This document shows, in pieces, positions 3,622 through 42,743 of a stretch of 64,000 bases of DNA. How positions within the stretch are numbered: the stretch's first letter is position 1; every line of letters begins with the position of its first letter. This DNA comes from an uncultured Clostridium sp. Lineage in GTDB: Bacteria; Bacillota; Clostridia; TANB77; CAG-508. Under the pieces are notes generated by a model, which did not search any database, was not told where the DNA came from, and saw only the letters and a program-made list of their open reading frames with translations. The position numbers and the translations under genes are program-made. Location of the stretch: contig CAKNIZ010000001.1 of NCBI GenBank assembly GCA_930980855.1, positions 87,198-151,197 of the forward strand. Reading direction: 5' to 3'.

Positions 3622-4380
3622 TTATTCTTGAGCCTCTCCTTCATCAATCTCACTAGATAATTGTTCCATTACTTCTAAGACTTGATTTAATCCTGGATAA
3701 ATTGCATCTATTAAATTTTCGTCTATTATTATTTTCCAGGTAAAGCCTTTTCTTTCAAGATTTAAAGTAGCTACTGTAGTTATAGTTTCAACATTATCTT
3801 GTTTTACACTTTCAGCTAATAATGCAATATTTTCCTCATTAGATATATCTTCTTGTGTTTCTAATTTTACAGATATTTTTTCTATCCAATTTAATAATAC
3901 TTGTCTAAAATTTTTAGTTGTTACTTCTACGTTTACTGTTGCTGTTTGATTTTCTACACTTTCTCCTGTTATAGACCATTCTATGGAATTAAAACAATTT
4001 TGCTCTAATTCTGTCATTTTTCCATTTCCTTGCCTTATTCCAGCATCTAAAACATTAATTAATTCATCATAGTTTATATTCCAGTTTGATACTTTTCCAT
4101 TTTTTAAGTTTGTAAATGTATTATTTACTGCCATTCTTGGAGTAATTGATGTATAAGCTACAAGTAATACTAATGCGATTAGTATTAGCAATAATACTAC
4201 TATTACAATCCATTTTTTACTTCTTTTTTCTTTATATTTTTTCAAATCTTTTTTATCTTCTATTTTATTATTTTTTTCTTTAACTTTTTTGTTTTTTTCA
4301 TTTACTTTCTTTTCTTCTTTTTTCTTATTTTTCTCTTTTATTTTATTTTCTTTTTCTTCTAATTTTTTATTATCTTCCAT
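3622..4380 (-). CDS. hypothetical membrane-anchored protein with a Lys-rich N-terminus
   Basis: A KEKNKK-rich tail is followed by one TM helix and an extracytoplasmic domain. Confidence 0.45.
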   Translation of the reverse strand: MEDNKKLEEKENKIKEKNKKKEEKKVNEKNKKVKEKNNKIEDKKDLKKYKEKRSKKWIVIVVLLLILIALVLLVAYTSITPRMAVNNTFTNLKNGKVSNWNINYDELINVLDAGIRQGNGKMTELEQNCFNSIEWSITGESVENQTATVNVEVTTKNFRQVLLNWIEKISVKLETQEDISNEENIALLAESVKQDNVETITTVATLNLERKGFTWKIIIDENLIDAIYPGLNQVLEVMEQLSSEIDEGEAQE

Positions 4381-6716: not shown

Positions 6717-6791
6717 TGGCAGGGGTAGAAGGATTTGAACCCTCACGCACGGTTTTGGAGACCGGAATGCTACCATTAACATCATACCCCT
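6717..6791 (-). tRNA. trnW: tRNA-Trp (anticodon CCA)
   Basis: The reverse complement gives an AGGGGTA/TACCCCT acceptor stem, a GGTTCAAATCC T-arm, a CTCCAAA anticodon loop and an encoded CCA end. Confidence 0.85.
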
Positions 6792-8773: not shown

Positions 8774-8912
8774 TATTATTTCCTCCTTATTTAAAAATTA
8801 TTCATAAACACATATATCTATTTTACACCATTAGAGCTCAAAAATCAAGCATTTTACATAATTAAAAAATAAATATATGGTTATACTTCATAGCAAAATA
8901 ATGTATAACCAA

Positions 8913-9012
8913 TTGTATATTCCAAGATTTTTTGTTTCTTACTGTCGCTGCTAAAATTCTCCGAATTTTACAGCTCCAAACTGCGCGAAACTGCAAAATC
9001 TTGAATATACAA
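8913..9012. repeat. MITE-like palindromic element, family B copy 1
   Basis: 19-bp terminal inverted repeats TTGTATATTC(C/A)AAGATTTT flank a conserved CTCCAAACTGCGCGAAACTGCAAAATCTTG core. A second copy lies at 30222-30306. Confidence 0.7.
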
Positions 9013-9073
9013 AAAATAATTAATGCGCTATGAATTTGAACTCATATATTTAATTTATAAAATTAATAAAAAC

Positions 9074-10860: not shown

Positions 10861-13440
10861 CTAATAATTAGACCTCATTTTGTCTAAGGTTCCATTTACT
10901 CCTGCTGAAAATTGTGTTTGTGTCTGCTTTTTGTTTTTTCCTCCAAAAAATCCTCTTTTAGCTTTTTCATAATCTGGAGAATATTTTGAATAGCCAGAAT
11001 AATTTGAACTTGATCCTCCCTGTACTAATGGATATACCATATTAGCAAGTTCTTCTAAACTACTTAAAAATCTTTGTGAATATCCATTTAATGAAATTTG
11101 ACATAGAGCAATTGCCTCTAAATATCTTGCATAAGTTTGCTCTTCAAATGGAATCGTTACATATTTTATTGTATTTGGATTAAATAAGTCTCTTTGTAAG
11201 GTCATAGATGGTTCATTATATTTTGCCATTCCACCTAATATCATTTTGTCTGTTAATATTTTTAATTTCATTTCTTTATTAATAACAACTCTAAGCTTGC
11301 TTTCATCTAATGCATTCTTTAATTTTAATTCACTTAAGAATAATGTTAATGGTTGAATTGTTAATGCATCCATTGATTGGATTAAATAAATTTCTGTTGC
11401 ATTTGTAAAATAGTTAATATTTGTTTCGAAATCGCAATCCATTAAAACTGCTGAGTAATTATTATCTAAAGTTTGTAATATTGTATCAAAATTTTCTAAC
11501 TCAGAATCTTCTCCAGGTAGAGATGTAAACACTGTTAAATTTCTGTTTACTTGAACTCCTTCTGCAATTCCTCTTGATAAGCTTTTAATACTATTTCCCG
11601 CAATTTGCATTAAATTCTGATCATTATTTGTAAACATATAATATGAATTTTTATTCTTTGTTAAATCTAATATTGCAGTATTTATTCCTTTTTTAGATAA
11701 AAATTCAGCTAAATTATTTACTATAAAAGATGTTCCATTTTTACTTGTACCAACAAAAGCTAAAACTTTACTATTTTGAGCTATAAAGTTACTAGCTCTT
11801 ACTGTATTATTTTGATAGTTTTGTTTTACTAATTCTTCAGTTCCAAATGGATTCATATTATAAGGATTTTGATTATATGAATTATCATACACATTTGGTT
11901 GAACTGTATTATATGGACTTTCCATTGGTTGCACTGTACTATATGGTACTTCATTTGCTGGTACAGGATTATATGGCATTTCGCTTGGTTGAGCCATATT
12001 TGGTTGTGAATCATAAGCATATGGAGTAGATTGAATTTCTTGTTTTGGCTCTTCTATAAGTTTATTTACATTTTCTAAGTCATCTGCCATACCAAAAAGA
12101 TTTACCTCTGGCTCTAATGTAGTATTTGCTATTTCTACATTATTATTTTGAGGAGCACTATTTGTATCAACATCGCCCAAATCAAATAAGTTTATTGCTT
12201 CGTCACTTGTTTTTGGTGCTTCTTCTGGTTGTTCTGCTACTACCTTTTTAGGTCTTCCTCTTCCTCTTTTTACAGGTTGCTCTGCTTGGGCATTAGTTTC
12301 AACTTCTTCTGTATTTATTTTTTTAGGTCTTCCTCTTCTTTTTGGTTTTTCTTCAACCCCAGCAACTTCTTGAACTTGTTTTTCTGTTTCTATTGGAGCA
12401 ATTGGCTCAATTGGATTTACTTGACTAACTGTAGTATTTGAACTCATTTGTCTTGGTGGTTCAATTTGTCCAAATTGTTGCATTTGTTCATATGGATTAA
12501 ATTGTTCTATTGGCTCCTGTCTATTTTGCACAACATTTTGAACTGGTGCAGCTTGTCTTGGCATATTCACTGGATTACTTCTTTGTACATTTGCCTTTTC
12601 TATATCCATTGTTGAAGGTATAATAACAGGTTTTGTAAGTTTTGTTTTCTCTAAGTCCTTTGTTAATAAATCCATATCTTTACTTTTTATTGTTCTTTGT
12701 GGTGGTTGATATTGATTGTACTTTCCGTTTGTAAGTACAGTTCCACCGGTCATTAACTTATGATATTTTTCTGATTTTGACTCTAAAATAGCTTTTACAT
12801 TCATAGGTAAGAATTTTACAATAATTCTTAATTGAGTGTCATTATATTGTGAAGCAATGCTATCAAAACTTTCAACACATTTCTTTTCATTATTTCCGAT
12901 TTTTTTATAATGATTTAATATGTTTTGTATCTCTGTTTCGCTTACTTCCATCTCACTTTCTGGGGGTCTATATCCAACATCTTCTGAATCGATTTTATAA
13001 TAGCTTTTTGCTTCTTTCTTACTTCTTGGTTTATTTATTAAATTACATACTGTTTCTACATTTCTGTCATTTCCTAATAAGGCATTATAAATACCTATTC
13101 CAAATAATTTTACTAATAATTCATCTGATTTAGTTCTTCTATCTGAACAAATTAAAATTATTGGAATATCTTCTCCAGTATTTTTATATGCCTCATCACT
13201 AATATTATCTAATTTTTCAAATAAAAATTTATCTACGGTATCGTAGTTATTATTTGATATAGGTTCTAAATCTTCTCCAATAACAACAATATCATAGCTT
13301 TTGTCCTTTTGTAATTCTTTTATTATTGCATTAAAGTAATATACATTTTTACTAGTTATTATTTCTTTATATTTTTGTTGATATTTCTTTATAATTGAAT
13401 TTGAAACATTATCATTACTTACTGCAAATAAAACTTTCAT
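10861..13440 (-). CDS. 859-aa multidomain protein: receiver-like N-terminus, AT-hook-containing low-complexity linker, degenerate ParA/MinD-like C-terminus
   Basis: Two KRRGRPKK / KRGRGRPKK AT-hooks are present. The C-terminal VLAFVGTSKNGTS..AILDLT segment resembles a ParA/CpaE fold with a non-canonical P-loop. Confidence 0.5.
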   Translation of the reverse strand: MKVLFAVSNDNVSNSIIKKYQQKYKEIITSKNVYYFNAIIKELQKDKSYDIVVIGEDLEPISNNNYDTVDKFLFEKLDNISDEAYKNTGEDIPIILICSDRRTKSDELLVKLFGIGIYNALLGNDRNVETVCNLINKPRSKKEAKSYYKIDSEDVGYRPPESEMEVSETEIQNILNHYKKIGNNEKKCVESFDSIASQYNDTQLRIIVKFLPMNVKAILESKSEKYHKLMTGGTVLTNGKYNQYQPPQRTIKSKDMDLLTKDLEKTKLTKPVIIPSTMDIEKANVQRSNPVNMPRQAAPVQNVVQNRQEPIEQFNPYEQMQQFGQIEPPRQMSSNTTVSQVNPIEPIAPIETEKQVQEVAGVEEKPKRRGRPKKINTEEVETNAQAEQPVKRGRGRPKKVVAEQPEEAPKTSDEAINLFDLGDVDTNSAPQNNNVEIANTTLEPEVNLFGMADDLENVNKLIEEPKQEIQSTPYAYDSQPNMAQPSEMPYNPVPANEVPYSTVQPMESPYNTVQPNVYDNSYNQNPYNMNPFGTEELVKQNYQNNTVRASNFIAQNSKVLAFVGTSKNGTSFIVNNLAEFLSKKGINTAILDLTKNKNSYYMFTNNDQNLMQIAGNSIKSLSRGIAEGVQVNRNLTVFTSLPGEDSELENFDTILQTLDNNYSAVLMDCDFETNINYFTNATEIYLIQSMDALTIQPLTLFLSELKLKNALDESKLRVVINKEMKLKILTDKMILGGMAKYNEPSMTLQRDLFNPNTIKYVTIPFEEQTYARYLEAIALCQISLNGYSQRFLSSLEELANMVYPLVQGGSSSNYSGYSKYSPDYEKAKRGFFGGKNKKQTQTQFSAGVNGTLDKMRSNY

Positions 13441-13443
13441 TCG

Positions 13444-13893
13444 TTAACCCCTCCAACCTTTTACTACAACTGCGAAAATAAGTGGTAGCACTTGACAAAT
13501 AATTAGCATTGTCACAATTCCTATCATAGCATTAAAGCCTTTATCTCTAACATCTAATTTTCTTATTCCTATAACATATTGATATATCGCACTAATTGCT
13601 ATTCCTAAAAATCCAACAGGAATACTATAAATTCTAACTTTATCTAATATGTATGCAACTAATCCATATGTATCACTTCCATAAGCTTGTTTATAATCTT
13701 CTAATGAGCTTAATTCTTTTTCTTTTATTTCAACTAATTGACTTTTTGTTTCATTTGATATTATTTCGCCTTCAATATTAGTATTAGTAGCATATACAGA
13801 ACTTATACTTAAAATGCTAATAATGATGAAAAAAACTGCAATTGCTTTTCTCATATTTTTTCTCCCTTCTTTGTTACTTATATTATAATACAC
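13444..13893 (-). CDS. hypothetical membrane protein
   Basis: A signal/TM at the N-terminus and two further TM segments are present. Confidence 0.35.
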   Translation of the reverse strand: MYYNISNKEGRKNMRKAIAVFFIIISILSISSVYATNTNIEGEIISNETKSQLVEIKEKELSSLEDYKQAYGSDTYGLVAYILDKVRIYSIPVGFLGIAISAIYQYVIGIRKLDVRDKGFNAMIGIVTMLIICQVLPLIFAVVVKGWRG

Positions 13894-13920
13894 TAATATC
13901 CGTAAAATATCAAGTAAATA

Positions 13921-15156
13921 TTATAATTTATTATATAAATAAGTCATCCATTTAAATACTCCATTTGCCCAATTTTTGTCTGTTGCATATCTCTTATTAA
14001 CAGCTGTCAATGTTGCTCCTTCATAGTAAGTACCAGATGCTGTTTCTCCTCCATAAATAGGTGTTCCCTTAGGATTTAAATAATATTTTACAAATACACG
14101 AGCAATTAAATCTATTCCTTCTGCATAGCTTTGGAATGTGTATGCACTTCCTGATGGATCACTATCATATGCTCCGTAGCCAAATAAGTTCTTTTTGTTT
14201 TTTGAGATACTTGATGTTCCCCATCCGCTTTCATGTATACCTACTGCAGCAACAAAAATTCCGTTTATATTATATTGTTGCTCTATATAGTAAAAATATT
14301 CAGCATTTTCTGTAAAAACATTATTTTTGTCATTAGAGTCATTTTCTAAAACTTTCTTAAATTGTTCTAAAGACAAACCACTTGGTTTATTTAAAAGCAT
14401 ACTAAATCCAAGATTTTGTGACAATTGTTCTTTTGTGTATTGAATATTATTTTCGTCACCATCACCTGTGCCATTAGGATTTACATACTCTAGGCAATCC
14501 ATTTTTGCCCAACCTAGATAATTCTCGTATGCTACATAATACCAATCGCCTTGTTTAGCTTTTAATGTAACTTTCTGTCCTTTATTGATTGTTACTATTT
14601 TTTCAGAATTTTCGTCTGGATTAACTCTTATTGGTAATGTTATAGATGTAGCTTGCAATTCATCTCCTACAACTGGTACATATGTATTAGAATATGCTCC
14701 TGTTCCGATTTGAACAATTTTATCTATTGATGCTTTTGTTATTTGAGATGAAACTTGTGTTGATGAAATTAACTTGTCCCCTTCATATATGTTTTTTAGT
14801 ACAGAATTTTGTTTTCCATCAACACCTTCTTGCAATACTTGGATTTTTCCTTTTGCAAGTGATGAATTTTCTATGTATTGTGTTGTAAATTCAATGTCTG
14901 TCTCTTGTGTTTCTAATCTTTCTACTTTTTTTATTTTTGTATTATTTTCTACAATTTCATCTATATTAATCTCTTTGCTTTTATCTTTTTTAGTAATTGG
15001 TACTTCCACTGCTAATATTGCTTTTTCTTCTTCTGCTGCATATGATTCATTTCTTGTGTAATATATACCAAAAATAATAGCTATAACTAATGCTACGGCT
15101 ATTAAAGATACTAAAATATACACCCATACCTTCGACTTTCTTACCATATTTTTCAC
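13921..15156 (-). CDS. cell-wall hydrolase with SH3-like and glucosaminidase (GH73) domains
   Basis: VAAVGIHESGWGTS...LFGYGAYD is the glucosaminidase signature. An N-terminal TM and a WYYV SH3b-like segment are also present. Confidence 0.7.
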   Translation of the reverse strand: MKNMVRKSKVWVYILVSLIAVALVIAIIFGIYYTRNESYAAEEEKAILAVEVPITKKDKSKEINIDEIVENNTKIKKVERLETQETDIEFTTQYIENSSLAKGKIQVLQEGVDGKQNSVLKNIYEGDKLISSTQVSSQITKASIDKIVQIGTGAYSNTYVPVVGDELQATSITLPIRVNPDENSEKIVTINKGQKVTLKAKQGDWYYVAYENYLGWAKMDCLEYVNPNGTGDGDENNIQYTKEQLSQNLGFSMLLNKPSGLSLEQFKKVLENDSNDKNNVFTENAEYFYYIEQQYNINGIFVAAVGIHESGWGTSSISKNKKNLFGYGAYDSDPSGSAYTFQSYAEGIDLIARVFVKYYLNPKGTPIYGGETASGTYYEGATLTAVNKRYATDKNWANGVFKWMTYLYNKL

Positions 15157-15269
15157 CTATTAATATTGTAATATTAAAGTCGTTTTTTGTCAATTAATGT
15201 ATTCAAAATGTAACACTAAAAAAATATTATGGGCGTTCCTTATATTTCATATTTTTTACAAAAATAAAA

Positions 15270-15346
15270 ATATGATTTTAAATTCAAGGGGAGCGACGAG
15301 CGAGCCGTACGGAGCGTCCCTGCTCCGGGAATTTAAAACCATATAT
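15270..15346. repeat. GC-rich MITE-like palindromic element, family A copy 1
   Basis: About 17-bp terminal inverted repeats (ATATGATTTTAAATTC / GAATTTAAAACCATATAT) flank the core CAAGGGGAGCGACGAGCGAGCCGTACGGAGCGTCCCTGCTCCGGG. A near-identical copy lies at 20755-20834. Confidence 0.75.
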
Positions 15347-15399
15347 TTATTTTTAGTAATATAATTCAAATTTTAAGGAATGTCTCTAAAATTTATTTT

Positions 15400-16689
15400 T
15401 TAAGTAACATTTTGTGTTCCTTCATTTTCTACTTCTTCTGTTTCTTGTTTTGTATTATCTATTTCTGGTCCTACTATTTCAGTTATTTTCTTAAGTTCTC
15501 TTTTCATTAGATTGTACATTGATTCAGAATATTCACTTGTTCCACTTTCATATTCAGATATTATATTTTCTATATCTAACAATTCATATCTGTCTTTTGC
15601 ATTCGAACCATTATCATAAACATATACTGGTGTATAGGTTGCTTTATCTATCGTAATTTCTCCAGTTTGTCCATTTTTTCTAACTTCAACATTTACTATC
15701 AAAGTATCTCTTGTATACTCTTGAGTTTGTGCAGAAAAGAAATTTCCCATTGAATATATTACAAATCCTTCTCTTTTTGTTCCATCATCTAAAGTAACTT
15801 CTTTCATTTCCATTGGTTCTGGAACGTGTGAATGGTTTCCCAGTATTATATCTGCTCCATTTTTTATCAAGAATTCTGCTAATTCTTCTTGTTCTTCTGT
15901 TGGTTTAATTCTATACTCAGAACCCCAATGCATACTAACAACTATAAGTTCTGCGCCTTCTTCTTTTGCCTTATCTAATTGCTGTTTCATAAAATCTTTA
16001 TCTATTAAGTTTACACTATATTCTCTACCACTTGGAATAGGAATTCCATTTGTTCCATAAGTATAGCATAAGAAAGCTGTTTTAATTCCTTCTAAATCTT
16101 TAAATAATATTGTATTTTGTTCTTCAACACTTCTTGATGTACCTGTATGAGCTATGCCATATTCATCTAATTTATCTAATGTTGAAACTAGACCAGAATA
16201 TCCCTTATCTATGCAATGATTATTTGCTGTAGTTAATATGTCTATTCCCATTTCCTTCATATCATACGCTAATTCAGCTGGTGAATTAAACGTTGGATAT
16301 CCAGAATATCCTCTTTCTTCTCCTGCTAAAGTCGTTTCCAAATTTCCTACTGCCACTGTTGCACTTTCAATATATTTTGTTATATTTTTAAACATTGGTG
16401 AGAAATCATATGTTCCAGTTTCACTATTATATGCATCTTTAAAATTTTGGCTATGACATAATGCGTCTCCAATTCCAACTATATTGATTACTGTATCCTC
16501 TGGTATCACTTCTTCTATTTTATTTTCCCCCTCTTTGCTATTAACAATTTCATTGTTTTGTGCTTGCTTTCCCAATATATCCGGATTGTTTACAAGAATA
16601 TATATTCCAGCTGATAATGCAATTAATAATATAATTACCATTACTCCTAAAAAAACATTTAATTTATTTATTTTCTTTTTTCTAGCCAT
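15400..16689 (-). CDS. CapA/PgsA-family metallophosphatase (poly-gamma-glutamate synthesis-like)
   Basis: An N-terminal TM and the GDALCH...NNHCID...GNHSHV metallophosphatase motifs are present. Confidence 0.75.
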   Translation of the reverse strand: MARKKKINKLNVFLGVMVIILLIALSAGIYILVNNPDILGKQAQNNEIVNSKEGENKIEEVIPEDTVINIVGIGDALCHSQNFKDAYNSETGTYDFSPMFKNITKYIESATVAVGNLETTLAGEERGYSGYPTFNSPAELAYDMKEMGIDILTTANNHCIDKGYSGLVSTLDKLDEYGIAHTGTSRSVEEQNTILFKDLEGIKTAFLCYTYGTNGIPIPSGREYSVNLIDKDFMKQQLDKAKEEGAELIVVSMHWGSEYRIKPTEEQEELAEFLIKNGADIILGNHSHVPEPMEMKEVTLDDGTKREGFVIYSMGNFFSAQTQEYTRDTLIVNVEVRKNGQTGEITIDKATYTPVYVYDNGSNAKDRYELLDIENIISEYESGTSEYSESMYNLMKRELKKITEIVGPEIDNTKQETEEVENEGTQNVT

Positions 16690-16691
16690 TT

Positions 16692-17552
16692 TTATCCCCC
16701 TATTTGTTTATTTGTTTTTTCTAATATCAAATATCTTTTTTCTATTATGTTTTTATAAAATTCTTTCCTAACATTAGACAAGCATTCTATACTATCTATA
16801 AAATTATTTATTTTTTCCATATCTATTTTATCAAATATTCTTTTTATTGCACTATTACATTCTTCATTTTTCATTTCTTTTATAAATGTCATATAATTAA
16901 TTTTCTTACCATTTTCTTTTATGCAAGAATAGCAATTAATTGCTAAATTTTTCAATTCTATTTCCGTTATTCTCTCTAGTTCTTCATCTTCTAGCATTGG
17001 ATTTAAACATGAGCCGCAATCATATATTGGTGAAAATTTAATTTCCTTAGTATTTCTATTTAAAATAAATCCCCAATTTCCATTGTGTCTATCCGTATTT
17101 CCAATCAAACTATCTATAATAAACATATCCCAAAATTTTTCTTTTATTTCTTCTTGATGAATCATCTTGTTTTCATCTAAAACTTCCATAATGTCTTCTA
17201 TATCTGTTTCAATTTTTTTGTCAGGATTTGTACTTAATGCTAAACTTTCAAATTCATATAATATATTTTCATCATCTGTAAAATCTTCACAAGCACATAC
17301 AATTTTTTCTTTTCCGTTATAAAAATATTTTCCAAGCACTGTGTTTTGCGTTTCAAATCCAACTATTTTAAATATATTACTTCCCACATATTCTGAAAAA
17401 GCATTGTTAATATATGAAATGTTTTTATTCTTTTCTCTGACTGGGTCAGGAAATTTTACTAAATATTTTTTGTTATCATATATAAGTGTTTTCTTTTTTT
17501 CAGACCCTTTATAATTATTGAATTCTTCAATTGCGTTTGTAAAATCAATCAT
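16692..17552 (-). CDS. HipA-like (CtkA-family) putative Ser/Thr kinase
   Basis: The IDSLIGNTDRHNGNWGFI catalytic-loop motif matches the HipA C-terminal domain. No HipB partner is adjacent. Confidence 0.55.
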   Translation of the reverse strand: MIDFTNAIEEFNNYKGSEKKKTLIYDNKKYLVKFPDPVREKNKNISYINNAFSEYVGSNIFKIVGFETQNTVLGKYFYNGKEKIVCACEDFTDDENILYEFESLALSTNPDKKIETDIEDIMEVLDENKMIHQEEIKEKFWDMFIIDSLIGNTDRHNGNWGFILNRNTKEIKFSPIYDCGSCLNPMLEDEELERITEIELKNLAINCYSCIKENGKKINYMTFIKEMKNEECNSAIKRIFDKIDMEKINNFIDSIECLSNVRKEFYKNIIEKRYLILEKTNKQIGG

Positions 17553-17696
17553 CTTTTTCCCTTCTTTCTATTATACAAATATAATAGCATAAATAATTTC
17601 ACATATCTAGTTAATTTATAATTTTATTTTAAAATTTTGCATAAATCTTCATGTAATGCACATAATAGCAATATAATGAAAAAATTAGGAGGAAAA

Positions 17697-18245
17697 ATGA
17701 AAGCGACAGGAGTAGTAAGAAGAATAGATGATTTAGGAAGAATCGTTATTCCTAAAGAAATCAGAAAAACTTTGAGAATAAAAGAAGGCGACCCATTGGA
17801 GATTTTCACAGAAAAAGATGGTGATATAATTTTAAAGAAATATTCTCCAATTGGTGAACTTTCTAATTTTGCAACAGAGTATGTTGAAAGTTTGAATAAA
17901 ATCACTGGACATATTAGCATAATAACAGACAGAGATACAGTTATAGCAGTAGCAGGAACTCCAAAAAAAGATATATTGGAACAAAAAATAAGTAGTAGCC
18001 TTGAAAAAGTATTTGAAAATAGGCAAAAATTTATTGGTGACGGCAATAATTCTATTTTAATTACTGAAAAAGGCAATAGAGAAAAAGAAATGAATCCTCA
18101 AGTTATTGCTCCGATTATCTCTGATGGGGATGTTATAGGAAGTGTTGCTTTAATAAGCAAAGATTCCTCTTCAAAAATGAGCAAGACAGAAGAAGAAATT
18201 GTGTCTGTTGCAGCAGCTTTTTTAGGAAGCCAAATGGAAATATAA
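17697..18245 (+). CDS. spoVT: stage V sporulation protein T (AbrB-type DNA-binding plus GAF domain)
   Basis: MKATGVVRRIDDLGRIVIPKEIR is the AbrB/SpoVT swapped-hairpin motif. An AGGAGG RBS precedes the ATG at 17697. Confidence 0.85.
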   Translation: MKATGVVRRIDDLGRIVIPKEIRKTLRIKEGDPLEIFTEKDGDIILKKYSPIGELSNFATEYVESLNKITGHISIITDRDTVIAVAGTPKKDILEQKISSSLEKVFENRQKFIGDGNNSILITEKGNREKEMNPQVIAPIISDGDVIGSVALISKDSSSKMSKTEEEIVSVAAAFLGSQMEI

Positions 18246-18260
18246 TTTTTTCAAATTTTT

Positions 18261-18290
18261 AAGAGCCTCTTTATTGAGGCTCTTTTATTT
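18261..18290. terminator. bidirectional terminator between spoVT and mazF
   Basis: AAGAGCCTC-TTTATT-GAGGCTCTT is a perfect 9-bp stem followed by a T-run. Confidence 0.65.
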
Positions 18291-18294
18291 TCTA

Positions 18295-18627
18295 TTATTT
18301 AATTTGTTCTAACTCAGAATAAATAATATCTATAACATTTTGCAATATGTCATTTGGTAAATTTTCTATTATTTGATATGTCCTACTATTTAAATCAAGT
18401 GCTTTTATATGTTCACATAGTATCACTCCAGTTGTTTTCGTTCTATTATCTAGCGGAACATGCAAAGGAAATTTATTATCTGTATTTGTGATTGGACATA
18501 CAATAGATAATCTGGTTTTTCTGTTAAATATATTATTACTTATAACGACTGCTGGTCTATAGCCTGCTTGCTCATGCCCTGATTGTGGATTAAAATTAAT
18601 TTTTATAATTTGTCCTTGTTCTACCAT
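18295..18627 (-). CDS. mazF: type II toxin MazF/PemK endoribonuclease
   Basis: GQIIKINFNPQSGHEQAGYRPAVVIS matches the PemK/MazF fold signature. Confidence 0.85.
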   Translation of the reverse strand: MVEQGQIIKINFNPQSGHEQAGYRPAVVISNNIFNRKTRLSIVCPITNTDNKFPLHVPLDNRTKTTGVILCEHIKALDLNSRTYQIIENLPNDILQNVIDIIYSELEQIK

Positions 18628-18893
18628 ATTTCCTCTCCTTTAGGCTCTCCCCAATCAATTTCTATTGGTTCATAATCATCTTTATAATCTTGAAATAATT
18701 CTTTTATGTTTTTTCTCTTATGTTGATTTGCTTTTTCTAAAATTAATTTTCCTTTATCAATAACAATTATAATTTGTTCATTTTCTGACCATTCAACACT
18801 GTCTAAAAGTGCTTTGGGTATTCTTATTCCTTGACTATTTCCCCATTTTTGAATAGTTGTTGTCATTTTACCATCTCCTTTTTGTATATACAT
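18621..18893 (-). CDS. mazE: antitoxin MazE/PemI (AbrB-fold)
   Basis: WGNSQGIRIPKALL is a swapped-hairpin motif, and the ORF overlaps the mazF start. Confidence 0.75.
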   Translation of the reverse strand: MYIQKGDGKMTTTIQKWGNSQGIRIPKALLDSVEWSENEQIIIVIDKGKLILEKANQHKRKNIKELFQDYKDDYEPIEIDWGEPKGEEIW

Positions 18894-19070
18894 AGTATAT
18901 ACAATATTTTAAAAATTGTCAATTATATTTGAATTTTTTATAATATTTTTTACATTAAAAATTAATTTTATTCTTTTTTCTTTATTCTTGAAGTAGCTTC
19001 TTTCCCTTGCATTTTGGTAAATTTTGTAGTAGAATAATGTCATAATTTTTTATGTAGAAAGGAGATTTTT

Positions 19071-20639
19071 ATGAGTAAATATTATGTTACTACTCCTATA
19101 TATTACCCAAGTGGTAAGTTTCATATAGGCACTGCTTACACAACAGTTTTAGCAGATTTTTTAAAAAGATATAAAGCGCTTCAGGGATATGATACTTACA
19201 TGCTAACTGGTACTGATGAGCATGGTCAAAAAATCCAAGACAAAGCAAAAGAATGTAACTTATCTCCTAAGGAATATGTTGATATACAAGCAAATATTGC
19301 AAAAGAATTATGGGCTAAAATGAAAATTGATTATAATAAATTTATAAGAACTACTGATGAATATCATGTAAAAGCAGTTCAAGAAATTTTTGAAAGATTT
19401 TTAAATCAAGGCGATATTTATAAAGGAGAATATGAAGGCTGGTATTGTAAGCCTTGTGAATCATACTTTACTGAAACACAATTAGTAGATGGAAAATGTC
19501 CTGATTGTGGCAGAGAAGTTATCAAAATGAAAGAAGAAGCATATTTCTTTAACATGAAAAAATATGCAGATAAATTATTAAAATATTATGATGAACATCC
19601 AGATTTTATTGTTCCAGAATACAGAAAACAAGAAATGATAAACAACTTCATAAAACCTGGTTTGGAAGATTTATGTGTTACAAGAACATCTTTTGATTGG
19701 GGTATTAAAGTTGAAAGTGACCCTAAACATGTTATTTATGTTTGGTTAGATGCTCTTACAAATTATCTAACTGCACTTGGTTACTTATCTCAAGACGATT
19801 CTTTATTTAATAAGTATTGGCCAGCAGATGTACATTTAGTTGGAAAAGATATTGCTAGATTCCATTTAATTTATTGGCCTATATTCTTAATGGCATTAGA
19901 TTTACCATTACCAAAAACTATTTTTGTTCATAACTGGTTTATGATGAAAGATGGTAAAATGTCTAAATCTAAAGGAAATGTAATCTATCCAGATCAATTA
20001 ATTGATAAATACGGATTAGATGCTACTAAATATTTCTTATTAAGAGAATTACCTTTATCTCAAGATGGTCTATTCTCTCCAGAAGGTTTTGTAGAAAGAT
20101 ATAACTACGATTTATGTAATGACTTAAGCAATTTACTTAACAGAACAGTTTCAATGGTTAATAAATATTTTGATGGGCATGTTCCAGAATATGTTGGAAC
20201 ACCTAATGAAGTAGATTCAGAATTAGAAAAAGCTTCTGAAGATGTTATAACTAACTTTACAAATTTAGTCGATAAATTTGATATTGCAAATACTATTCAA
20301 GCTATTTGGAACTATGTTGCTAGAACAAATAAATATATAGATGAGACTTCTCCTTGGGTTTTAGCTAAAAATGAAGAAGATACAGAAAAATTAAAATCTT
20401 GTATGTATCATTTAGTTGCAAATCTTAGAGAAATTGCAATTCTAATCACACCTTTTATGTTTGAAACATCTCAAAATATGTTAAGACAATTAGGTATTTT
20501 AAGTGACATTACTTGGGATAGTTTAAAAGAATACAAAGATATAAAGAATGTAAAAGTTATTGAAAAAGGTGAACCTATTTTCATGAGATTAAACGCTGAA
20601 GAAGAAGTTCAATATATAAAAGATTTAATGAAGAAATAA
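19071..20639 (+). CDS. metG: methionine--tRNA ligase (short form)
   Basis: PIYYPSGKFHIGTAY is the HIGH-like motif, KMSKSKGN is the KMSKS motif, and the CPDCG zinc knuckle is present. Confidence 0.9.
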   Translation: MSKYYVTTPIYYPSGKFHIGTAYTTVLADFLKRYKALQGYDTYMLTGTDEHGQKIQDKAKECNLSPKEYVDIQANIAKELWAKMKIDYNKFIRTTDEYHVKAVQEIFERFLNQGDIYKGEYEGWYCKPCESYFTETQLVDGKCPDCGREVIKMKEEAYFFNMKKYADKLLKYYDEHPDFIVPEYRKQEMINNFIKPGLEDLCVTRTSFDWGIKVESDPKHVIYVWLDALTNYLTALGYLSQDDSLFNKYWPADVHLVGKDIARFHLIYWPIFLMALDLPLPKTIFVHNWFMMKDGKMSKSKGNVIYPDQLIDKYGLDATKYFLLRELPLSQDGLFSPEGFVERYNYDLCNDLSNLLNRTVSMVNKYFDGHVPEYVGTPNEVDSELEKASEDVITNFTNLVDKFDIANTIQAIWNYVARTNKYIDETSPWVLAKNEEDTEKLKSCMYHLVANLREIAILITPFMFETSQNMLRQLGILSDITWDSLKEYKDIKNVKVIEKGEPIFMRLNAEEEVQYIKDLMKK

Positions 20640-20643
20640 ATTA

Positions 20644-20740
20644 GAGTAAAATCATGTTTTCTTATTTCACGCCTCGAGGACGAGGCGCACAACTCACTCC
20701 ACGCTTTCGCTCGTTTGAAATAGAAAACGTGATTTTACTC
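20644..20740. repeat. MITE-like palindromic element, family C
   Basis: 26-bp terminal inverted repeats (GAGTAAAATCATGTTTTCTTATTTCA / TGAAATAGAAAACGTGATTTTACTC) enclose a GC-rich hairpin GCCTCGAGGACGAGGC. The element sits immediately downstream of metG. Confidence 0.65.
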
Positions 20741-20754
20741 TATATACAATAAAA

Positions 20755-20834
20755 ATATATGGTTTAAAATTCAAGGGGAGCGATGAGCGAGCCGTACGGA
20801 GCGTCCCTGCTCCGGGAATTTATAAACCATATAT
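20755..20834. repeat. GC-rich MITE-like palindromic element, family A copy 2
   Basis: The core matches 15270-15346 with one substitution (GAC to GAT), and the terminal inverted repeats are ATATATGGTTTAAAATTC / GAATTTATAAACCATATAT. Confidence 0.75.
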
Positions 20835-20841
20835 TTTTTAG

Positions 20842-23466
20842 CTATATGTTATCTTTTCTAATTGTTTCTATTATATTTTGTTTATTAATTTTATTTAATG
20901 AATATTTCATTATAGCTCCAATTAATGCAAACACTACAATTATTGCTACAATAGTTGGCATAACTGGGAACTTATATGACATTTCTATTCCTTGGCTAAA
21001 AGCCATATATAGTAAATATGAACCTAATACTCCAAGTGGTACTCCTATTAAAATTGCTTTTGTTCCATAGAATATGCTTTCCAACCTAATCATTTTGTTA
21101 AACTCTTTTTTCGTCATTCCTATTGATTTTAGATTTGCAAATTCTTTACTTCTCAAATTCATGTTACTTGTTATTGTATTGAATATATTAGTTATTCCTA
21201 TTAATGAAATTACTATTATAAATCCGTATAAGAATATTGCAATTATTAATATTAATGAGTTTTGAGATTTGACCTCATTTTCTATATTATATAAATCCAC
21301 ATGAGGATAATTCTTTTTTATTTCTTGTTCCAATTTTCCTGCATCTTTTGCATCAACATACATCATACTTATAAGCCAATCATATTGTTCGATAAATTCA
21401 TCGCTAACAATAATTATTCCATTTGTAGCTGATGTCATTTCTTGACCCATAGGAGCTTTATCTGTCAAAGTTGCAACTTCTAAGGTTACCGGTGTTTCCT
21501 CTTCTCCTTTCAATATTTTCGCTTCAAACTTATCTCCTTTTTTGAAATTATAAATATGTCCTACTTCTTTTTTGTACTCTCCATTATCTCCGTAATAAAC
21601 ATATTTCTCATAATTATCCATCCATATTACTTTATCTTTCGCATAATCATAACTTAGTCCTAAATCATCAATATATCTTCTGTACTCATCTTCTCCCAAT
21701 GCATAGATTGTTGTATATGCAATATTAGCATCTTCTAATGAATCGTTTCCATATCCTTCGACATATTCTTTTCCATCTTCTGTATATTTCAAATTTCTCT
21801 TATCTAATTTTAAATTTAGCACTCTTGAAATTGAATATTCTTCTACTCCTTCCATTTCTGCTATTTCTTGATAGAGTTTATATGTTTCTTCTTCAGTCTC
21901 AGTCTGTTCCCCCCTGCTTATACTAATATTGTATTTTACTTCTTTATAAGTAATATTCGATACTTCGAAACCATATTGCACTAATGAAGTAACAGATATA
22001 AATATCATTATACTTACAATCAAGGATACAACTGTTGTTCTATATTTTTTCTTATTTCTTTTCAAATTTTTATATGCTACAGTTCCACCTATTCCAAATA
22101 TTTTCTTAATTATTTTAGGTGATTTTATTTTTTTACTTTTTATTTTTATATCAGTATTACTTCTTATAGCATCAATAGGTGATACTTTTGAAGCTTTTCT
22201 CGCTGATGATATGCAAGAAAAGTAAATAGTAATTCCTGCTAAAACTACCGAGAAAATTATAGCAAGTACTGGTATAGAAAATATAAATGTAAAATCTTCA
22301 GATATATTTCTCATTAAAGTATTTAATACTATTGATAATATAACATTTACTATAATTCCAAGTAAAATTCCAAGTGGTATTGCTATAATTCCTAATATAA
22401 ATCCTTCAAATAGTACATTCTTTTTTATTTGCTTTTTAGTCGCTCCTATTGACGAAAGCATTCCATATTGTCTTGTTCTTTCTGTGATAGATATTGCAAA
22501 ACTATTTCTTATAACAAAAACACTAGATATTATTATTATTACAAGTACGATAATTCCTACTAGATATAGCATTCTCATATATGCATTATTAAGTCCTACG
22601 CCTTCGAAATTTAATAATGATGTATTAAACAATAAACCATATTTACTTCCTAATGTTTCTGGTTCTTCTCCATATACAAGCTCATCTAATCCCATATATA
22701 GGTCTTCTTTTTGCTTTTCTACATTCATTCCTAATACACTGCATGTAACTTCTTTATAATTTCTTAATGCATCTTTTTTATATTTTACAAATATATTTGC
22801 ATCTTCTGCTATATTTGTTGTATCTAAAAATGTTATAACTGTATAACCAGGTGCTGTAAATGGTTCTAAATCATAATTAAGTCTATTCATGATTCCTACT
22901 ATTGTATATTCTTTGCTGTACATTTTTTCTAATTCTTCATCTTCTGTATATATATCTTTTTGATTTAACTCTTTACCCTCTAGAGTTCTTTTTGATACAT
23001 CCAAATTAATTTTTTGCCCTACTTTTAAATTGACTTCTCCATTATAAATTATACTTGAACTAATCACTATCTCATCACTATTTTGAGGAAGTCTTCCTTC
23101 TGTTATAGTAAATGGCATTTTTGTAAGTCCAGCTGAATCATAACCAACTATATTTACATATGGCTTATCTGGATTAGTACTTCCATTTAAAGCAGCATAT
23201 CCTAAATCAGATGATAAAAAATAATCCTCTACATTTCTATTTTCCTCAATATATGAAAGTTCTTCGAGTGGTACTTCTTTAAATTCTGCATGAAAGTCTC
23301 CATATGTGTCTATAGAATATTGCTTAAGTGTACTCTGTCCACTTGTTACCATCCCTGCAACAACTGTTATTAAAGCAGTCGATAAAATTATACCTATTAT
23401 TGTTACCAATGTTCTTTTTTTATTTAATTTTAAACTTTTGATTGTTAGTTTATTAAGGATTTTCAT
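20842..23466 (-). CDS. ABC transporter permease, FtsX-like (two FtsX domains, MacB/VraG-type)
   Basis: The 874-aa protein has an N-terminal TM, large extracytoplasmic domains and two 4-TM FtsX modules. Confidence 0.8.
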   Translation of the reverse strand: MKILNKLTIKSLKLNKKRTLVTIIGIILSTALITVVAGMVTSGQSTLKQYSIDTYGDFHAEFKEVPLEELSYIEENRNVEDYFLSSDLGYAALNGSTNPDKPYVNIVGYDSAGLTKMPFTITEGRLPQNSDEIVISSSIIYNGEVNLKVGQKINLDVSKRTLEGKELNQKDIYTEDEELEKMYSKEYTIVGIMNRLNYDLEPFTAPGYTVITFLDTTNIAEDANIFVKYKKDALRNYKEVTCSVLGMNVEKQKEDLYMGLDELVYGEEPETLGSKYGLLFNTSLLNFEGVGLNNAYMRMLYLVGIIVLVIIIISSVFVIRNSFAISITERTRQYGMLSSIGATKKQIKKNVLFEGFILGIIAIPLGILLGIIVNVILSIVLNTLMRNISEDFTFIFSIPVLAIIFSVVLAGITIYFSCISSARKASKVSPIDAIRSNTDIKIKSKKIKSPKIIKKIFGIGGTVAYKNLKRNKKKYRTTVVSLIVSIMIFISVTSLVQYGFEVSNITYKEVKYNISISRGEQTETEEETYKLYQEIAEMEGVEEYSISRVLNLKLDKRNLKYTEDGKEYVEGYGNDSLEDANIAYTTIYALGEDEYRRYIDDLGLSYDYAKDKVIWMDNYEKYVYYGDNGEYKKEVGHIYNFKKGDKFEAKILKGEEETPVTLEVATLTDKAPMGQEMTSATNGIIIVSDEFIEQYDWLISMMYVDAKDAGKLEQEIKKNYPHVDLYNIENEVKSQNSLILIIAIFLYGFIIVISLIGITNIFNTITSNMNLRSKEFANLKSIGMTKKEFNKMIRLESIFYGTKAILIGVPLGVLGSYLLYMAFSQGIEMSYKFPVMPTIVAIIVVFALIGAIMKYSLNKINKQNIIETIRKDNI

Positions 23467-23468
23467 TT

Positions 23469-24158
23469 CTACACCTCCTTAATAATCTTTCCATCTTCTA
23501 TTGTAAGTACTCTATCCGCTTCGTTTGCAATTTCTTTATTATGAGTAATCATTATTATTGTTTGTTTATATTTTTTATTCGTCATTTTTAATAACTCAAC
23601 AATTTCATCACTTGACTTTGAATCCAAATTTCCTGTTGGCTCATCTGCCAATATTATTGCTGGATTATTAATTAATGCTCTACCAATTGATACTCTTTGT
23701 TGTTGTCCTCCTGATAATTCATTTGGCAAGTGATTTTTTCTATTGTCTAATTTTAAAGTTTTTAATAAATCGTTTAATCTATCTTCATCTACTTTGTTTC
23801 CATCTAAATCACAAGGAAGAGTAATATTTTCTTCAACATTTAATATTGGTATTAAGTTATAGAATTGATATATTATTCCTACTTGTCTTCTTCTAAATAT
23901 TGCTAGATTATCATCATTTAAGGTATATATATCTTTTCCATCAACATACACTTTTCCTGATGTAGGTCTATCAACTCCTCCTAGTAAATGTAATAATGTA
24001 GATTTTCCGCTTCCTGAACTACCTACTATTGCTAAGAATTCTCCTTTTTGAACAGAAAAACTTACATTATCAACAGCTATTACTTCACTTTCTCCTTTTC
24101 CGTATTTTTTAGTCAAATTTTCAACTCTTAATATTTCCATAAATAACATTCCTTTCAT
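23469..24158 (-). CDS. ABC transporter ATP-binding protein
   Basis: Walker [18 protein letters not shown] and Walker B ILADEPTG motifs are present. Confidence 0.9.
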   Translation of the reverse strand: MKGMLFMEILRVENLTKKYGKGESEVIAVDNVSFSVQKGEFLAIVGSSGSGKSTLLHLLGGVDRPTSGKVYVDGKDIYTLNDDNLAIFRRRQVGIIYQFYNLIPILNVEENITLPCDLDGNKVDEDRLNDLLKTLKLDNRKNHLPNELSGGQQQRVSIGRALINNPAIILADEPTGNLDSKSSDEIVELLKMTNKKYKQTIIMITHNKEIANEADRVLTIEDGKIIKEV

Positions 24159-24207
24159 TTAATTTAACTTTATTATACAGAGTTAAAGTGACTTTTAAAT
24201 GACTAAT

Positions 24208-25422
24208 TTATTTAATCCATCTAATTTTAAATGATGTCCCTTCACCTAATTTAGAATAACAATTTATTGTTGCACCTTGATTTTCTAATATAGATTTTGA
24301 AAGTGCTAGTCCTATTCCGAAACTATTTTCCTGAGAGTTTTTTCCCTTATAAAATCTTTCAAAGATATGCTTTATATCTTCTTCATCTATTCCTTCTCCT
24401 TCATCTCTTATTTCTAATTCTGTATACATATTCGTATTTTTTGCATTTATATAAATATTTTTCTCTTCTCCTGTATGCTCAATACAATTTTTTAAAATAT
24501 TAGTTATTGCCTCTAAAGTCCACTTATAATCCCCTTGTACACAGCAATCTTTTTCTATATTCTTTAATATATTTTGTTTTTTAATTTCTATTGGTATTTC
24601 TAAAGTTTCGATTGCATCATTTATTAAGTTTTCTAACCTTATATTCTGATTGTTAAATTTTACTGCTTCTGCATCTAATTTTGATAATTTCAAAAGTGAA
24701 ATTGTTAAAAAACTTATTTGTTCAATTTGCCTACTTATTTCAAATAAAAATTTTTGTTTTGTTAGTTCATCCATCTCACTGTTTTCTTTTATTTCATCCA
24801 ACATTATTGTAATTGATGTTAATGGGGTTTTTATTTGATGAGATATATCTGACAAACTTATTGCTAAATTTTTCTTATCTTTTTCTGAATTTTCAGCCTG
24901 CTCTCTAAGCATTAAAGTTATTTTATATAGTTCATTTCTTAAATTTGTAAGTTCATCTTCTGCATTTTCTTTTATTTTTAGCTCATAATTTTTATCATTA
25001 ATATCTCTAATATATTTTGTTATTTTATTAATTTCTTTTTTCTCTTTATATTTATATATAATATTTACCAAAATAATTAACAATAGCAGCATTAAAATTA
25101 TCAATGAATTTAATATTAAGCTTTGATTATATACACTTTCCATATTTAATATTGCAGATTCACTACTATCTATTCCATATCTTTCAAGAAGATTTTTTCC
25201 TTCATTTATGCTTTCTTGATTTTTTTCTCCATTTAAAATTACTGCAATTTTCTCATCTGATATATTTGGATATTTTTCTTTTATATTACCAATTATTTCG
25301 AATATTACTGTATTATATTCTTCTCTATATCTATCATACTCATACTTTGTAGCTACTATCATTGCTAAAATTCCAATTATACTAATTATACAAATAATAA
25401 TTACACTACTCTTTTTCATCAT
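24208..25422 (-). CDS. sensor histidine kinase
   Basis: Two TMs, a HisKA box (SHQIKTPL) and HATPase_c motifs (G-x-G-L) are present. Confidence 0.85.
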   Translation of the reverse strand: MMKKSSVIIICIISIIGILAMIVATKYEYDRYREEYNTVIFEIIGNIKEKYPNISDEKIAVILNGEKNQESINEGKNLLERYGIDSSESAILNMESVYNQSLILNSLIILMLLLLIILVNIIYKYKEKKEINKITKYIRDINDKNYELKIKENAEDELTNLRNELYKITLMLREQAENSEKDKKNLAISLSDISHQIKTPLTSITIMLDEIKENSEMDELTKQKFLFEISRQIEQISFLTISLLKLSKLDAEAVKFNNQNIRLENLINDAIETLEIPIEIKKQNILKNIEKDCCVQGDYKWTLEAITNILKNCIEHTGEEKNIYINAKNTNMYTELEIRDEGEGIDEEDIKHIFERFYKGKNSQENSFGIGLALSKSILENQGATINCYSKLGEGTSFKIRWIK

Positions 25423-26074
25423 CTACTCTATACCCTATTCCTCTTACTGTTTTTACAATCTTTCCTTCACTATCTCCTATTTTTTCTCTTATACGCTTTA
25501 TATATACTGTTAGAGTGTTATCATTTACAAAATTACCTGCCACATCCCATATTTTATCTAAAAGCATTTCTCTAGTAACCAACTTATTTTTATTAGTAAA
25601 TAGCATTAGTAATATTCTATACTCTAATCCTGTAAGTTCCACAATTTTACCTTGACTTTTGACTTCTCTATTTTCTGTATCAATCGTAATTCCTTTACAC
25701 TCTATTAGATTTTGCACTATCTTGTTATATCTTCTTAAAGCAACTTTTATCCTAGATATTAGTTCCCTTACTTTAAAAGGTTTTACGACATAATCTTCTG
25801 CCCCTAAATCTAGTCCTTTTACTACATTAGTTTCTTCGTCCCTTGCTGTTAAAAATATTACTGGAACATCATTTTTTTGTTTTATTTCTTTGAATAAGTC
25901 AAAGCCATTTCCATCAGGAAGTGTTATATCCAACAGCACTAAATCATATCCCTCTTCTTTTTTTGCATCTATTATATTCTTTGCAATTTTTACATTATAT
26001 TTTTCTTGCTCTAGTGCATATTTTAATCCCATTATTATAGTTTCACTATCTTCAACCAATAAAATTGTAAACAT
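25406..26074 (-). CDS. OmpR-family response regulator
   Basis: A receiver domain (LLVEDSE..LLDITLPDG) and a winged-helix C-terminus (GIGYRV) are present. Confidence 0.9.
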   Translation of the reverse strand: MFTILLVEDSETIIMGLKYALEQEKYNVKIAKNIIDAKKEEGYDLVLLDITLPDGNGFDLFKEIKQKNDVPVIFLTARDEETNVVKGLDLGAEDYVVKPFKVRELISRIKVALRRYNKIVQNLIECKGITIDTENREVKSQGKIVELTGLEYRILLMLFTNKNKLVTREMLLDKIWDVAGNFVNDNTLTVYIKRIREKIGDSEGKIVKTVRGIGYRVDDEKE

Positions 26075-26163
26075 ATTAAATTCCTTTCTTACGTATTATA
26101 TTATATCAGGAATAGACTTTAGTTTCAATAATTGCCTATTAAATAGCAATCTCAAGTGTCCAA

Positions 26164-26192
26164 TTTGCAAATATTTGTTTTCTGTGTTATAA
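26164..26192 (+). promoter_or_regulatory. candidate sigma-A promoter (TTGCAA-17-TATAAT) for the GC-rich orphan gene
   Basis: A consensus-like -35 (26164-26169) and -10 (26187-26192) with a 17-nt spacer lie about 30 nt upstream of the GGAGG RBS. Confidence 0.45.
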
Positions 26193-26224
26193 TTATAAGT
26201 ACTACATTTTTGGAGGTGTGCATA

Positions 26225-26668
26225 ATGCTCATTACGCAAAGTGGCCTTGAATCGGCCGAATCCAGCAAAGAACTTTCCATTGATGATGTCTTCACCACGC
26301 TTATTGCAGCGTTGTATGTCACCAGAATTACTGGTCCTGCAACAGAAACTGATAAGCTGTTGATGATTAGCTTTTATGACCAAGTCAAGCGGCTTGGCGA
26401 AAATCCTGAGGCATTCTATGGAAAAAGGTCTTTTCCTGATTTGGTTATTAAGGACTACCTGAAAGATCACAAACATATCCCTATTGATGATAAAATCAGC
26501 TCTATGGATATAATGTTTGTATCTGAAAGAGTCCGGAACCACAAGAACGTCAAAATGACGCAAGTTACTTTGACATTTGAGAACTCATCTTCGATTGAAA
26601 TCGTAGATTTTTCTCCGACGTTCAGCCGTTTCATGAGACACTACGTGTTTGAGGATAAGAATCCTTAA
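26225..26668 (+). CDS. hypothetical protein encoded in a GC-rich (about 45% GC) foreign islet
   Basis: A GGAGG RBS 8 nt upstream of the ATG, a clean 147-codon frame and a GC-rich terminator support the call. Composition is very different from the roughly 27% GC flanks. The antisense ORF 26096-26563 is judged spurious. Confidence 0.5.
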   Translation: MLITQSGLESAESSKELSIDDVFTTLIAALYVTRITGPATETDKLLMISFYDQVKRLGENPEAFYGKRSFPDLVIKDYLKDHKHIPIDDKISSMDIMFVSERVRNHKNVKMTQVTLTFENSSSIEIVDFSPTFSRFMRHYVFEDKNP

Positions 26669-26686
26669 GCATGTTAGCACAAAAAA

Positions 26687-26718
26687 CCCCAGGCTCGTTA
26701 TCGGGCCAGGGGTTTCTT
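26687..26718 (+). terminator. GC-rich rho-independent terminator
   Basis: CCCCAGGCTCG-TTAT-CGGGCCAGGGG stem-loop followed by TTTCTT. Confidence 0.5.
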
Positions 26719-26721
26719 AAT

Positions 26722-30084: not shown

Positions 30085-30221
30085 TATTAATCCTTCCTTT
30101 TCTCATAAAATGCTATATTATTATATCACAAATTTTACATAAATCAAGGGGTTAACGCTAATTTGTAGAAACTAAATTAAAACTTTGTTACAATTTAGAG
30201 CAAGTATGAAATGCTTTAAAA

Positions 30222-30306: not shown

Positions 30307-30344
30307 TTGTATGAATTTAATAAGAAGCTGTGAATAGTAACTAT

Positions 30345-42731: not shown

Positions 42732-42743
42732 TACATTACCTCC

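Follow-up and report, generated by a model that had tools for sequence, protein, structure and literature searches.

Family A, a small interspersed palindromic repeat of an uncultured gut Clostridia species, and evidence of sister families

Introduction

The stretch of DNA analysed here (the window, 64,000 nucleotides from an uncultured Clostridium sp.) has a GC content of 27.4%, and two short palindromic sequences with GC-rich cores stand out in its intergenic gaps. The question raised by this locus is what such sequences are, an earlier note on the same DNA having proposed either a non-autonomous mobile element or a REP-like module acting as structured RNA or terminator. We explore below the sequence, gene context, distribution and folding of the two copies, together with the related hairpin families that occur beside them. 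The two GC-cored hairpin sequences are true copies of a dispersed non-coding palindromic repeat, here termed family A. The explanation that we favour, and hold to be probable, is that family A is a MITE/REPIN-type non-autonomous repeat, specific to its species, spread in trans and likely to form a hairpin at transcript ends. It is a new family of the familiar small interspersed palindromic repeat and not a new kind of system.

The two copies in the window

The two copies and their parts are as follows.

15260-15354, plus strand: family A copy 1, with arms at 15260-15285 and 15329-15354 and a GC-rich core at 15286-15328
20746-20845, plus strand: family A copy 2, with arms within 20742-20769 and 20820-20847 and a core at 20773-20815
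15310-15327, plus strand: inner hairpin CGGAGC-GTCCCT-GCTCCG of copy 1, from the RNAalifold consensus; in copy 2 at about 20797-20814

A repeat search within the window paired 15261-15338 with 20748-20825 at 91% identity, and the 43-nt cores of the two copies differ at a single position (C15297 / T20784), which bears out the earlier description of two near-identical copies with one core substitution. The core 29-mer GAGCGAGCCGTACGGAGCGTCCCTGCTCC has exactly two occurrences in the window and none in 100 shuffles, even with up to 3 mismatches tolerated; CCGTACGG is likewise common to both copies. Neither copy is expected by chance.

Several of the dimensions first given for the element need revision. 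The terminal inverted repeats, put at 17-19 bp, are in fact arms of 26 nt in copy 1 (92% complementary) and 28 nt in copy 2 (82% complementary); the TATAT taken for their tips sits within the arms instead, and the core, estimated at about 60% GC, measures 70-72%. Across all full copies of family A the arms are 26-28 nt long and 82-100% complementary, with the AT-rich 26-nt consensus AAAAATAAATATATGATTTTAAATTC, and they run from an A-run at the start to a T-run at the end on both strands. The unit as a whole is 95-110 nt long and there is no ORF conserved among the copies. Arm-like matches at 57572-57656 were rejected as a further copy, since they have three mismatches each and lie inside a gene without a core.

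The window holds other compositional and repetitive features. The GC fraction is lower, at 0.23-0.26, over approximately 40-50 kb, and there are locally GC-richer patches at 26180-26722, including an ORF without Pfam match (26156-26668) that is followed by a canonical GC-rich terminator (26675-26722). A direct repeat of 130 nt, 85% identical, lies at 30951-31080 and 31332-31461 inside ORFs, again without Pfam match, and 23469-26074 and 42315-45216 are paralogous ABC-transporter / two-component modules with about 73-80% DNA identity.

Gene context of the two copies

The surroundings of both copies are set out below.

13921-15156, minus strand: G5/SH3/glucosaminidase gene, its start about 100 nt beyond copy 1
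15165-15193, minus strand: TTGACA-17-TACAAT, a promoter-like site situated between the start of 13921-15156 and copy 1
15400-16689, minus strand: PGA_cap-family gene (ORF and Pfam calls), its 3' end 45 nt from copy 1
19071-20639, plus strand: metG, converging on the B and A elements
20640-20745, plus strand: family B palindromic element (fold z = -9.3), beginning within two bases after the metG stop
20842-23466, minus strand: MacB/FtsX-type permease gene, converging on copy 2, with its stop codon at 20842-20844

The gap of 202 nt between the convergent metG and permease genes is wholly occupied by two elements, B and then A, such that family B separates copy 2 from metG and copy 2 adjoins the permease stop codon within one base. 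The gene-end context originally suggested for both copies therefore stands for copy 2, which lies in the gap 3' of metG, but not in the form given for copy 1: because 13921-15156 is a minus-strand gene, copy 1 is not downstream of it, and is found instead 45 nt 3' of the PGA_cap stop and about 100 nt 5' of the 13921-15156 start.

Further copies and distribution

An exact 21-mer from the core, scanned against 185,579 species representatives (GTDB), matched one record, the MAG 'uncultured Clostridia bacterium BRZ_ES__bin90', which is the GTDB representative of the species itself, with a contig that matches the window at 98.5% identity and includes the copy 1 orthologue. Since this exact scan matched only the species' own MAG, no cross-species distribution follows from it, and since the representative MAG has a single exact match, the genome-wide copy number may be low.

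The same 21-mer matched four contigs of metagenome ERZ1643247, with coverage of 4.3-5.1x. One of them, L009, corresponds to window 13001-25897 at 98% identity and has both orthologous copies, while the other three (L010, L011 and L012) are similar to the window at the elements only, with unrelated flanks, and add five copies. These are L010a; L010b, which is diverged and lies in opposite orientation 67 bp from L010a; L011a, which is truncated and in tandem with L011b; and a copy on L012. From their coverage, composition and common repeat families we infer that L010-L012 come from the same genome as L009. The total is at least seven distinct copies at at least five loci, together with one joined to a truncated gene, which upholds the proposal of a dispersed multi-copy family and disposes of the case in which only the two window copies exist. 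In the approximately 110 kb of conspecific DNA examined the density of elements is about 1 per 10 kb, a spacing that might, by extrapolation, hold for the whole genome.

Between strains, the orthologues of copy 1 are identical in contigs L001 and L009, and those of copy 2 are found with a 19-nt core deletion in L009 and with a full core in L022. Several independent assemblies hold contigs 100% identical to the window, and three Logan contigs end at window 15319, within copy 1, as expected of a repeated k-mer. Other differences between strains were noted. In contig L024 (1-6760, the GLEN20 scaffold_82 strain) an integrase-containing island replaces the window sequence beyond gene 3622-4380, a strain-level polymorphism near tRNA-Trp (6717-6791), and window ~11895-11912 and L001 1983-2085 show an in-frame-looking length difference of about 87 bp inside the large gene 10861-13440, a repetitive coding sequence without Pfam match.

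In three related species, whose metG genes are 86, 85 and 82% identical, nhmmer found family A absent from the metG loci. The metG-permease gap of the first species is 46 bp long and holds a plain bidirectional hairpin only, and that of the second holds a different repeat. Synteny is kept at these metG loci with intergenic DNA that is unalignable, and a nucleotide-precise empty site was not found among them; the region upstream of tig, the site of a family C element, is likewise unalignable in the relatives and gave no empty site. Because the relatives' flanks are too diverged to align, these comparisons establish the absence of the element and not its insertion point. Strain variants at the EF-P/RuvX site were rejected as a comparison, all places having collapsed to one. 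The best explanation of the distribution is that family A is restricted to one uncultured gut Clostridia species.

The element was translated in six frames, and the concatenated products, used to query a protein database, yielded two contigs, L022, which represents a third allele of the metG site, and L021, a single low-coverage contig of 890 bp. The right flank of the family A copy on L021 is orthologous to the flank of L010a (95.8% identical), and its left flank is a GGDEF-domain ORF continuing into the element with no stop codon, the GGDEF match breaking off at position 123 of the 161 in the model. L021 and L010 are homologous from the very tip of the left arm onward; left-flank homology between the two was rejected, the similarity being at chance level. 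Two explanations are possible, namely an element-bounded rearrangement or insertion truncating the gene, or a chimeric join at the repeat, and a follow-up search for an intact orthologue of the L021 GGDEF gene found none. Either way, the coding sequence that a family A copy directly adjoins is interrupted, and the unit includes the 26-nt arm in its entirety.

Folding and covariation

On either strand, each of the two copies folds into a single long hairpin, with z = -4.7 to -6.3 relative to shuffles. The RNAalifold consensus of eight distinct copies consists of a 26-bp outer stem together with the inner hairpin, and 95% of the cells of this alignment that should pair do so. Changes on both sides are found in 10 of the 36 pairs, compared with 4.5 +/- 1.3 in shuffles (0/500 reaching the observed number), and sliding the partners by 1-3 columns leaves 0-3 such pairs. 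The inner hairpin of L010b, for example, has a compensatory change from G-C to A-U. The strand favoured by the G-U / A-C asymmetries reverses between copies, so there is no sign of a strand-specific RNA constraint.

The arms also change in concert between strains. Copy 2 has the arms ATATATGG / CCATATAT in the window, whereas L009 and L022 both have ATAAATGG / CCATTTAT, and in the arms of family B, compared between strains ~98% identical, a G-to-A change and a one-base deletion are each mirrored in the opposite arm. There are thus three concerted double changes between orthologous copies of the two elements at 98% ANI, whereas, by our estimate, a divergence of 2% would yield about 0.01 such complementary changes by chance, which implies that some process keeps the arms complementary. 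Candidates for this process are hairpin selection, conversion from another copy, and template switching in the quasi-palindrome, the last being a known mutational mechanism. REPINs display an equal compensatory pattern across their hairpin (PMC3116915).

Sister families and nesting

Apart from family B, listed above, the window and the additional contigs contain the following elements.

8862-9060, unstranded: outer palindrome with arms like those of family A, enclosing family C copy 1
8911-9012, unstranded: family C copy 1, nested at the apex of that palindrome
30217-30311, unstranded: family C copy 2, with AT-rich arms and a GC-richer core
L012 7330-7413: third copy of family C, of the same build
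L011 ~3845-3967: family D, longer, its core ends common with C
L012 ~11770-11900: family E, its core end CGCTCG-TGAAAT common with B
L010 6575-6660: B', with the B core and inner arms and different outer arms

Family A is collinear with family B in reverse orientation (a weak nhmmer match, E = 0.029), and the two have a common layout, consisting of an arm, a GC-rich hairpin of 6-7 bp, CTC(A/G)CTC, CGCTC, TTGAA and a second arm. The loop of the hairpin, AGG(G)AC, is kept, while its stem varies with compensation (CGGAGC/GCTCCG in A, CGAAGC/GCTTCG in L010b and CGCCTCG/CGAGGCG in B). Similarly, C and D have the core ends GTTTCGCG ... GCAAGAAAC in common. The outer arms of B', which lies between convergent genes, are self-complementary and unlike those of B, and with the sequence AAAATTCACC...GGTGAATTTT they look like a native bidirectional terminator. 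Family E and B' have the arm motif ACCAATAT in common and look like mosaic or nested constructions; the position of C copy 1 within A-like arms and the arms of B' likewise suggest nesting or mosaicism. Family A is one of at least five modular hairpin-repeat families, some of them apparently nested in other hairpins.

Beside copy 2 the strains differ by a 45-bp indel, present at L009 7838-7882 and L022 ~236-285 and falling at window 20840-20841, which holds a B-like left arm, TAGAGTAAAACATGATTTT, with TACTCT before it; the indel could be what remains of a family B element, as either a solo arm or an end-to-end junction. The related species have palindromic families of their own, at L019 4224-4307 and 9844-9913, L013 3760-3810, L016 (1230-1345, 2999-3117 and 6491-6540) and L023 (16721-16753). 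They include a family F, GGGGACACC...AAAACAGC, of which even the 'plain' hairpin that follows metG in L013 is a relative, and a family G, GGAACGTCCC / GGGACGTTCC, a G-like hairpin being found also in the species of the window. A 'GGGACG' motif common with the relatives' repeats is not relied on, as so short a GC-rich word can recur by chance.

Searches for known RNAs, transposases and insertion marks

Rfam gave no match on either copy at the gathering threshold, and none at the elements at E<=10 over 15000-21000; ARAGORN found the tRNA-Trp at 6717-6791 only and no tRNA at the elements. These searches agree with the initial impression that the element matches no well-known named family, and they argue against a tRNA or riboswitch fragment. 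A likeness to group II intron domain V (GAGCCGTA...TACGG) was rejected, there being no Intron_gpII match at E<=10, and BLASTN against phages and plasmids, together with a pattern scan of viral contigs, gave chance AT-rich matches at most.

No direct repeat is common to both flanks of any copy, the flanks being AT-rich and unrelated, and no target-site duplication (TSD) was recognised, although a TA duplication of 2 nt might be concealed by the palindromic, AT-rich ends. The 64-kb window and approximately 60 kb of further conspecific DNA contain neither an autonomous element nor a transposase whose ends match those of family A, and a Pfam scan of the genes in the window and at the other loci gave no RAYT (Y1 transposase). 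The window does contain the following genes, all of them distant from the elements.

1635-2555 and 32682-33629, minus strand: two PD-(D/E)XK 'transposase'-family genes (Transposase_31/YhgA-like, PDDEXK_2; Pfam)
36476-37684, minus strand: tyrosine integrase gene (Pfam)

A consensus scan for canonical intrinsic terminators called none at either copy; approximately 20 nt separate the GC-rich stems from the T-run, which lies outermost in the AT-rich arm. In the proposal of a mobile element or a REP-like or terminator module, the multi-copy, non-coding and hairpin-forming character of the element has thus stood, but the REP definition and the canonical terminator pattern have not.

Origin and function

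According to the explanation that we favour, the whole unit, arms included, would be copied, and would have reached a number of intergenic sites and, in one case or more, the end of a truncated gene. An enzyme supplied in trans would recognise the arms or the hairpin, by either a MITE-like DDE or a REPIN-like single-strand route, and the arms would evolve in concert by hairpin selection or template switching. Most copies lie 1-60 nt from a stop codon, and their transcription would give the mRNA a 3' end with a hairpin of great stability, a structure that, judging from position, is probably terminator-like or RNA-protecting.

The positions of the elements could, in principle, also be explained by selection on the host, family A being a bidirectional terminator or a stabiliser of mRNA ends that is copied by recombination and not by selfish transposition. 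The distance to a stop codon is 1-60 nt for both window copies, L010a, L011b, B and B', and the copies fill convergent or tandem gaps without other terminator, with arms that run from A-run to T-run on both strands; in a related species an ordinary bidirectional hairpin terminator takes their place at the metG site. Copy 1 is, moreover, identical between strains that show about 10 differences in the adjacent 45-nt spacer. In the same six independent cases the nearest upstream gene reads the A or B element in one orientation, 'inner hairpin first' (6/6), which is suggestive of a transcription-related bias and too insignificant to build on. Against such a role, the GC-rich stem lies far from the T-run, the L012 copy is situated upstream of ftsZ in a gap between divergent genes, copies that are truncated or have internal deletions persist, and one copy is fused to the truncated GGDEF ORF. 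Recombination alone, furthermore, leaves unexplained how a sharp-ended unit of 95 nt comes to be at unrelated loci, and we regard a purely host-selected origin as unlikely.

A second alternative concerns the route of movement, family A being on this account a REPIN-like element that is moved as single-stranded DNA by a tyrosine (Y1, RAYT/IS200-type) transposase, which would recognise the GC-rich inner hairpin and leave no TSD, with the long foldback as the unit of replication. Such movement is consistent with the long hairpin of approximately 100 nt, with compensatory changes in both the arms and the inner hairpin, as in REPINs (PMC3116915), with a TSD not being seen, with the head-to-head and tandem pairs L010a/b and L011a/b, and with the conserved loop and varying stem of the A and B hairpins; the inner hairpin also contains CGTC, the tag of one REP superfamily (PMC3733652). 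Here, however, CGTC spans the boundary of stem and loop, and where REPs have GC-rich stem-loops the conserved ends are formed by AT-rich arms. A Y1 transposase gene is absent from the window and from the neighbours of the copies, and Firmicutes are neither listed among the phyla with such repeats nor named in that survey (PMC3733652). We consider this route improbable.

It can also be envisaged that A, B, B', C, D and E constitute one modular hairpin system, the units inserting at hairpin apexes and having their arms homogenised by hairpin-based copying. The nested palindromes could in that case be built on native terminators or on other elements, and propagation without target duplication would be accomplished by an enzyme that would take the inner hairpin, in which the AGG(G)AC loop is kept and the stem varies, as its recognition site. 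The differing outer arms of B and B', the nesting of C copy 1 and the three concerted double changes would all fit such a system, which we nevertheless regard as decidedly unlikely.

That family A comprises small structured RNA genes or cis-regulatory RNAs, with a function in the transcript and not in the DNA, is very unlikely, for although the predicted folds are strong, covariation exceeds that of controls and a GC-rich core is conserved in an AT-rich genome, both strands fold equally well with asymmetries on opposite strands in different copies, orientation and context vary, no promoter is conserved with the element, Rfam has no match at E<=10, and covariation of inverted arms is equally expected of DNA hairpins.

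Family A does not overturn current understanding. It adds an undescribed repeat family, and evidence of sister families, in a little-known uncultured and very AT-rich lineage of gut Clostridia. Such elements break short-read assemblies, Logan contigs ending within them, can flag strain-level rearrangements such as the GGDEF junction, and probably shape transcript 3' ends. With arms that evolve in concert and hairpins that are apparently nested, these families offer natural material for studying the upkeep of palindromic repeats, and if targeting of hairpin apexes with homogenisation of arms were true, it would be a distinct mechanism of propagation and raise the interest of these families further.

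Comparison with known systems

REPs are GC-rich stem-loops of 20-40 nt with GTAG or CGTC at one stem end (PMC3733652); in family A there is no GTAG, and the lone CGTC is at the stem-loop junction of the inner hairpin. REPINs, known from Pseudomonas and other Proteobacteria, are more closely comparable, in that they too are units of approximately 100 nt with inverted conserved ends that form one long hairpin, are extragenic, occur in tandem or inverted clusters, show compensatory changes (PMC3116915) and have no obvious TSD. They are unlike family A in their GC-rich REP stem-loop ends, GTAG tag and linked RAYT gene, where family A has AT-rich 26-mer ends, a central asymmetric GC-rich part and a Clostridia host, RAYT not being found.

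The likeness to MITEs is one of general build. MITEs are shorter than 500 bp, with TIRs of 4-30 bp, AT-rich and intergenic, and give structured transcripts (PMC10969869), and family A agrees with them in size, TIRs, non-coding character and dispersed copies at non-homologous sites. The classical examples (Correia/NEMIS, ERIC, bcr1 of the Bacillus cereus group and the Rickettsia RPEs) are alike in size and in TIRs of approximately 26 nt, and differ in that the defining TSD and parent IS are not found for family A and in that its arms co-vary, which is not required for double-stranded TIRs bound by a transposase. Like family A, classical MITEs are multi-copy, mostly intergenic and lineage-restricted, and can fold as RNA and be situated at transcript ends. 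Part of this description is found in PMC3184786 and PMC10969869.

The pneumococcal repeats RUP, BOX and SPRITE, compared here by description, resemble family A in having Firmicute hosts, a length of approximately 100-150 nt, no coding capacity and stable predicted hairpins, SPRITE being in addition terminator-like. They are not expected to be related to family A in sequence. The ends of RUP are of the IS630 type and it has a TA duplication, which is not seen here, and the GC-rich core in a genome of 27% GC is distinctive of family A. BOX, RUP and SPRITE are reported to cluster together and to insert into one another (PMC10969869), a behaviour comparable to the B+A tandem, the L010a/b pair and the C element within A-like arms.

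Intrinsic bidirectional terminators, finally, have in common with family A a hairpin between an A-run and a T-run, placed directly after stop codons and between convergent genes. Compared with them, family A has a far longer stem, a structured apex of 43 nt and a GC-rich stem set apart from the T-run, and it is repeated in near-identical form at unrelated loci.
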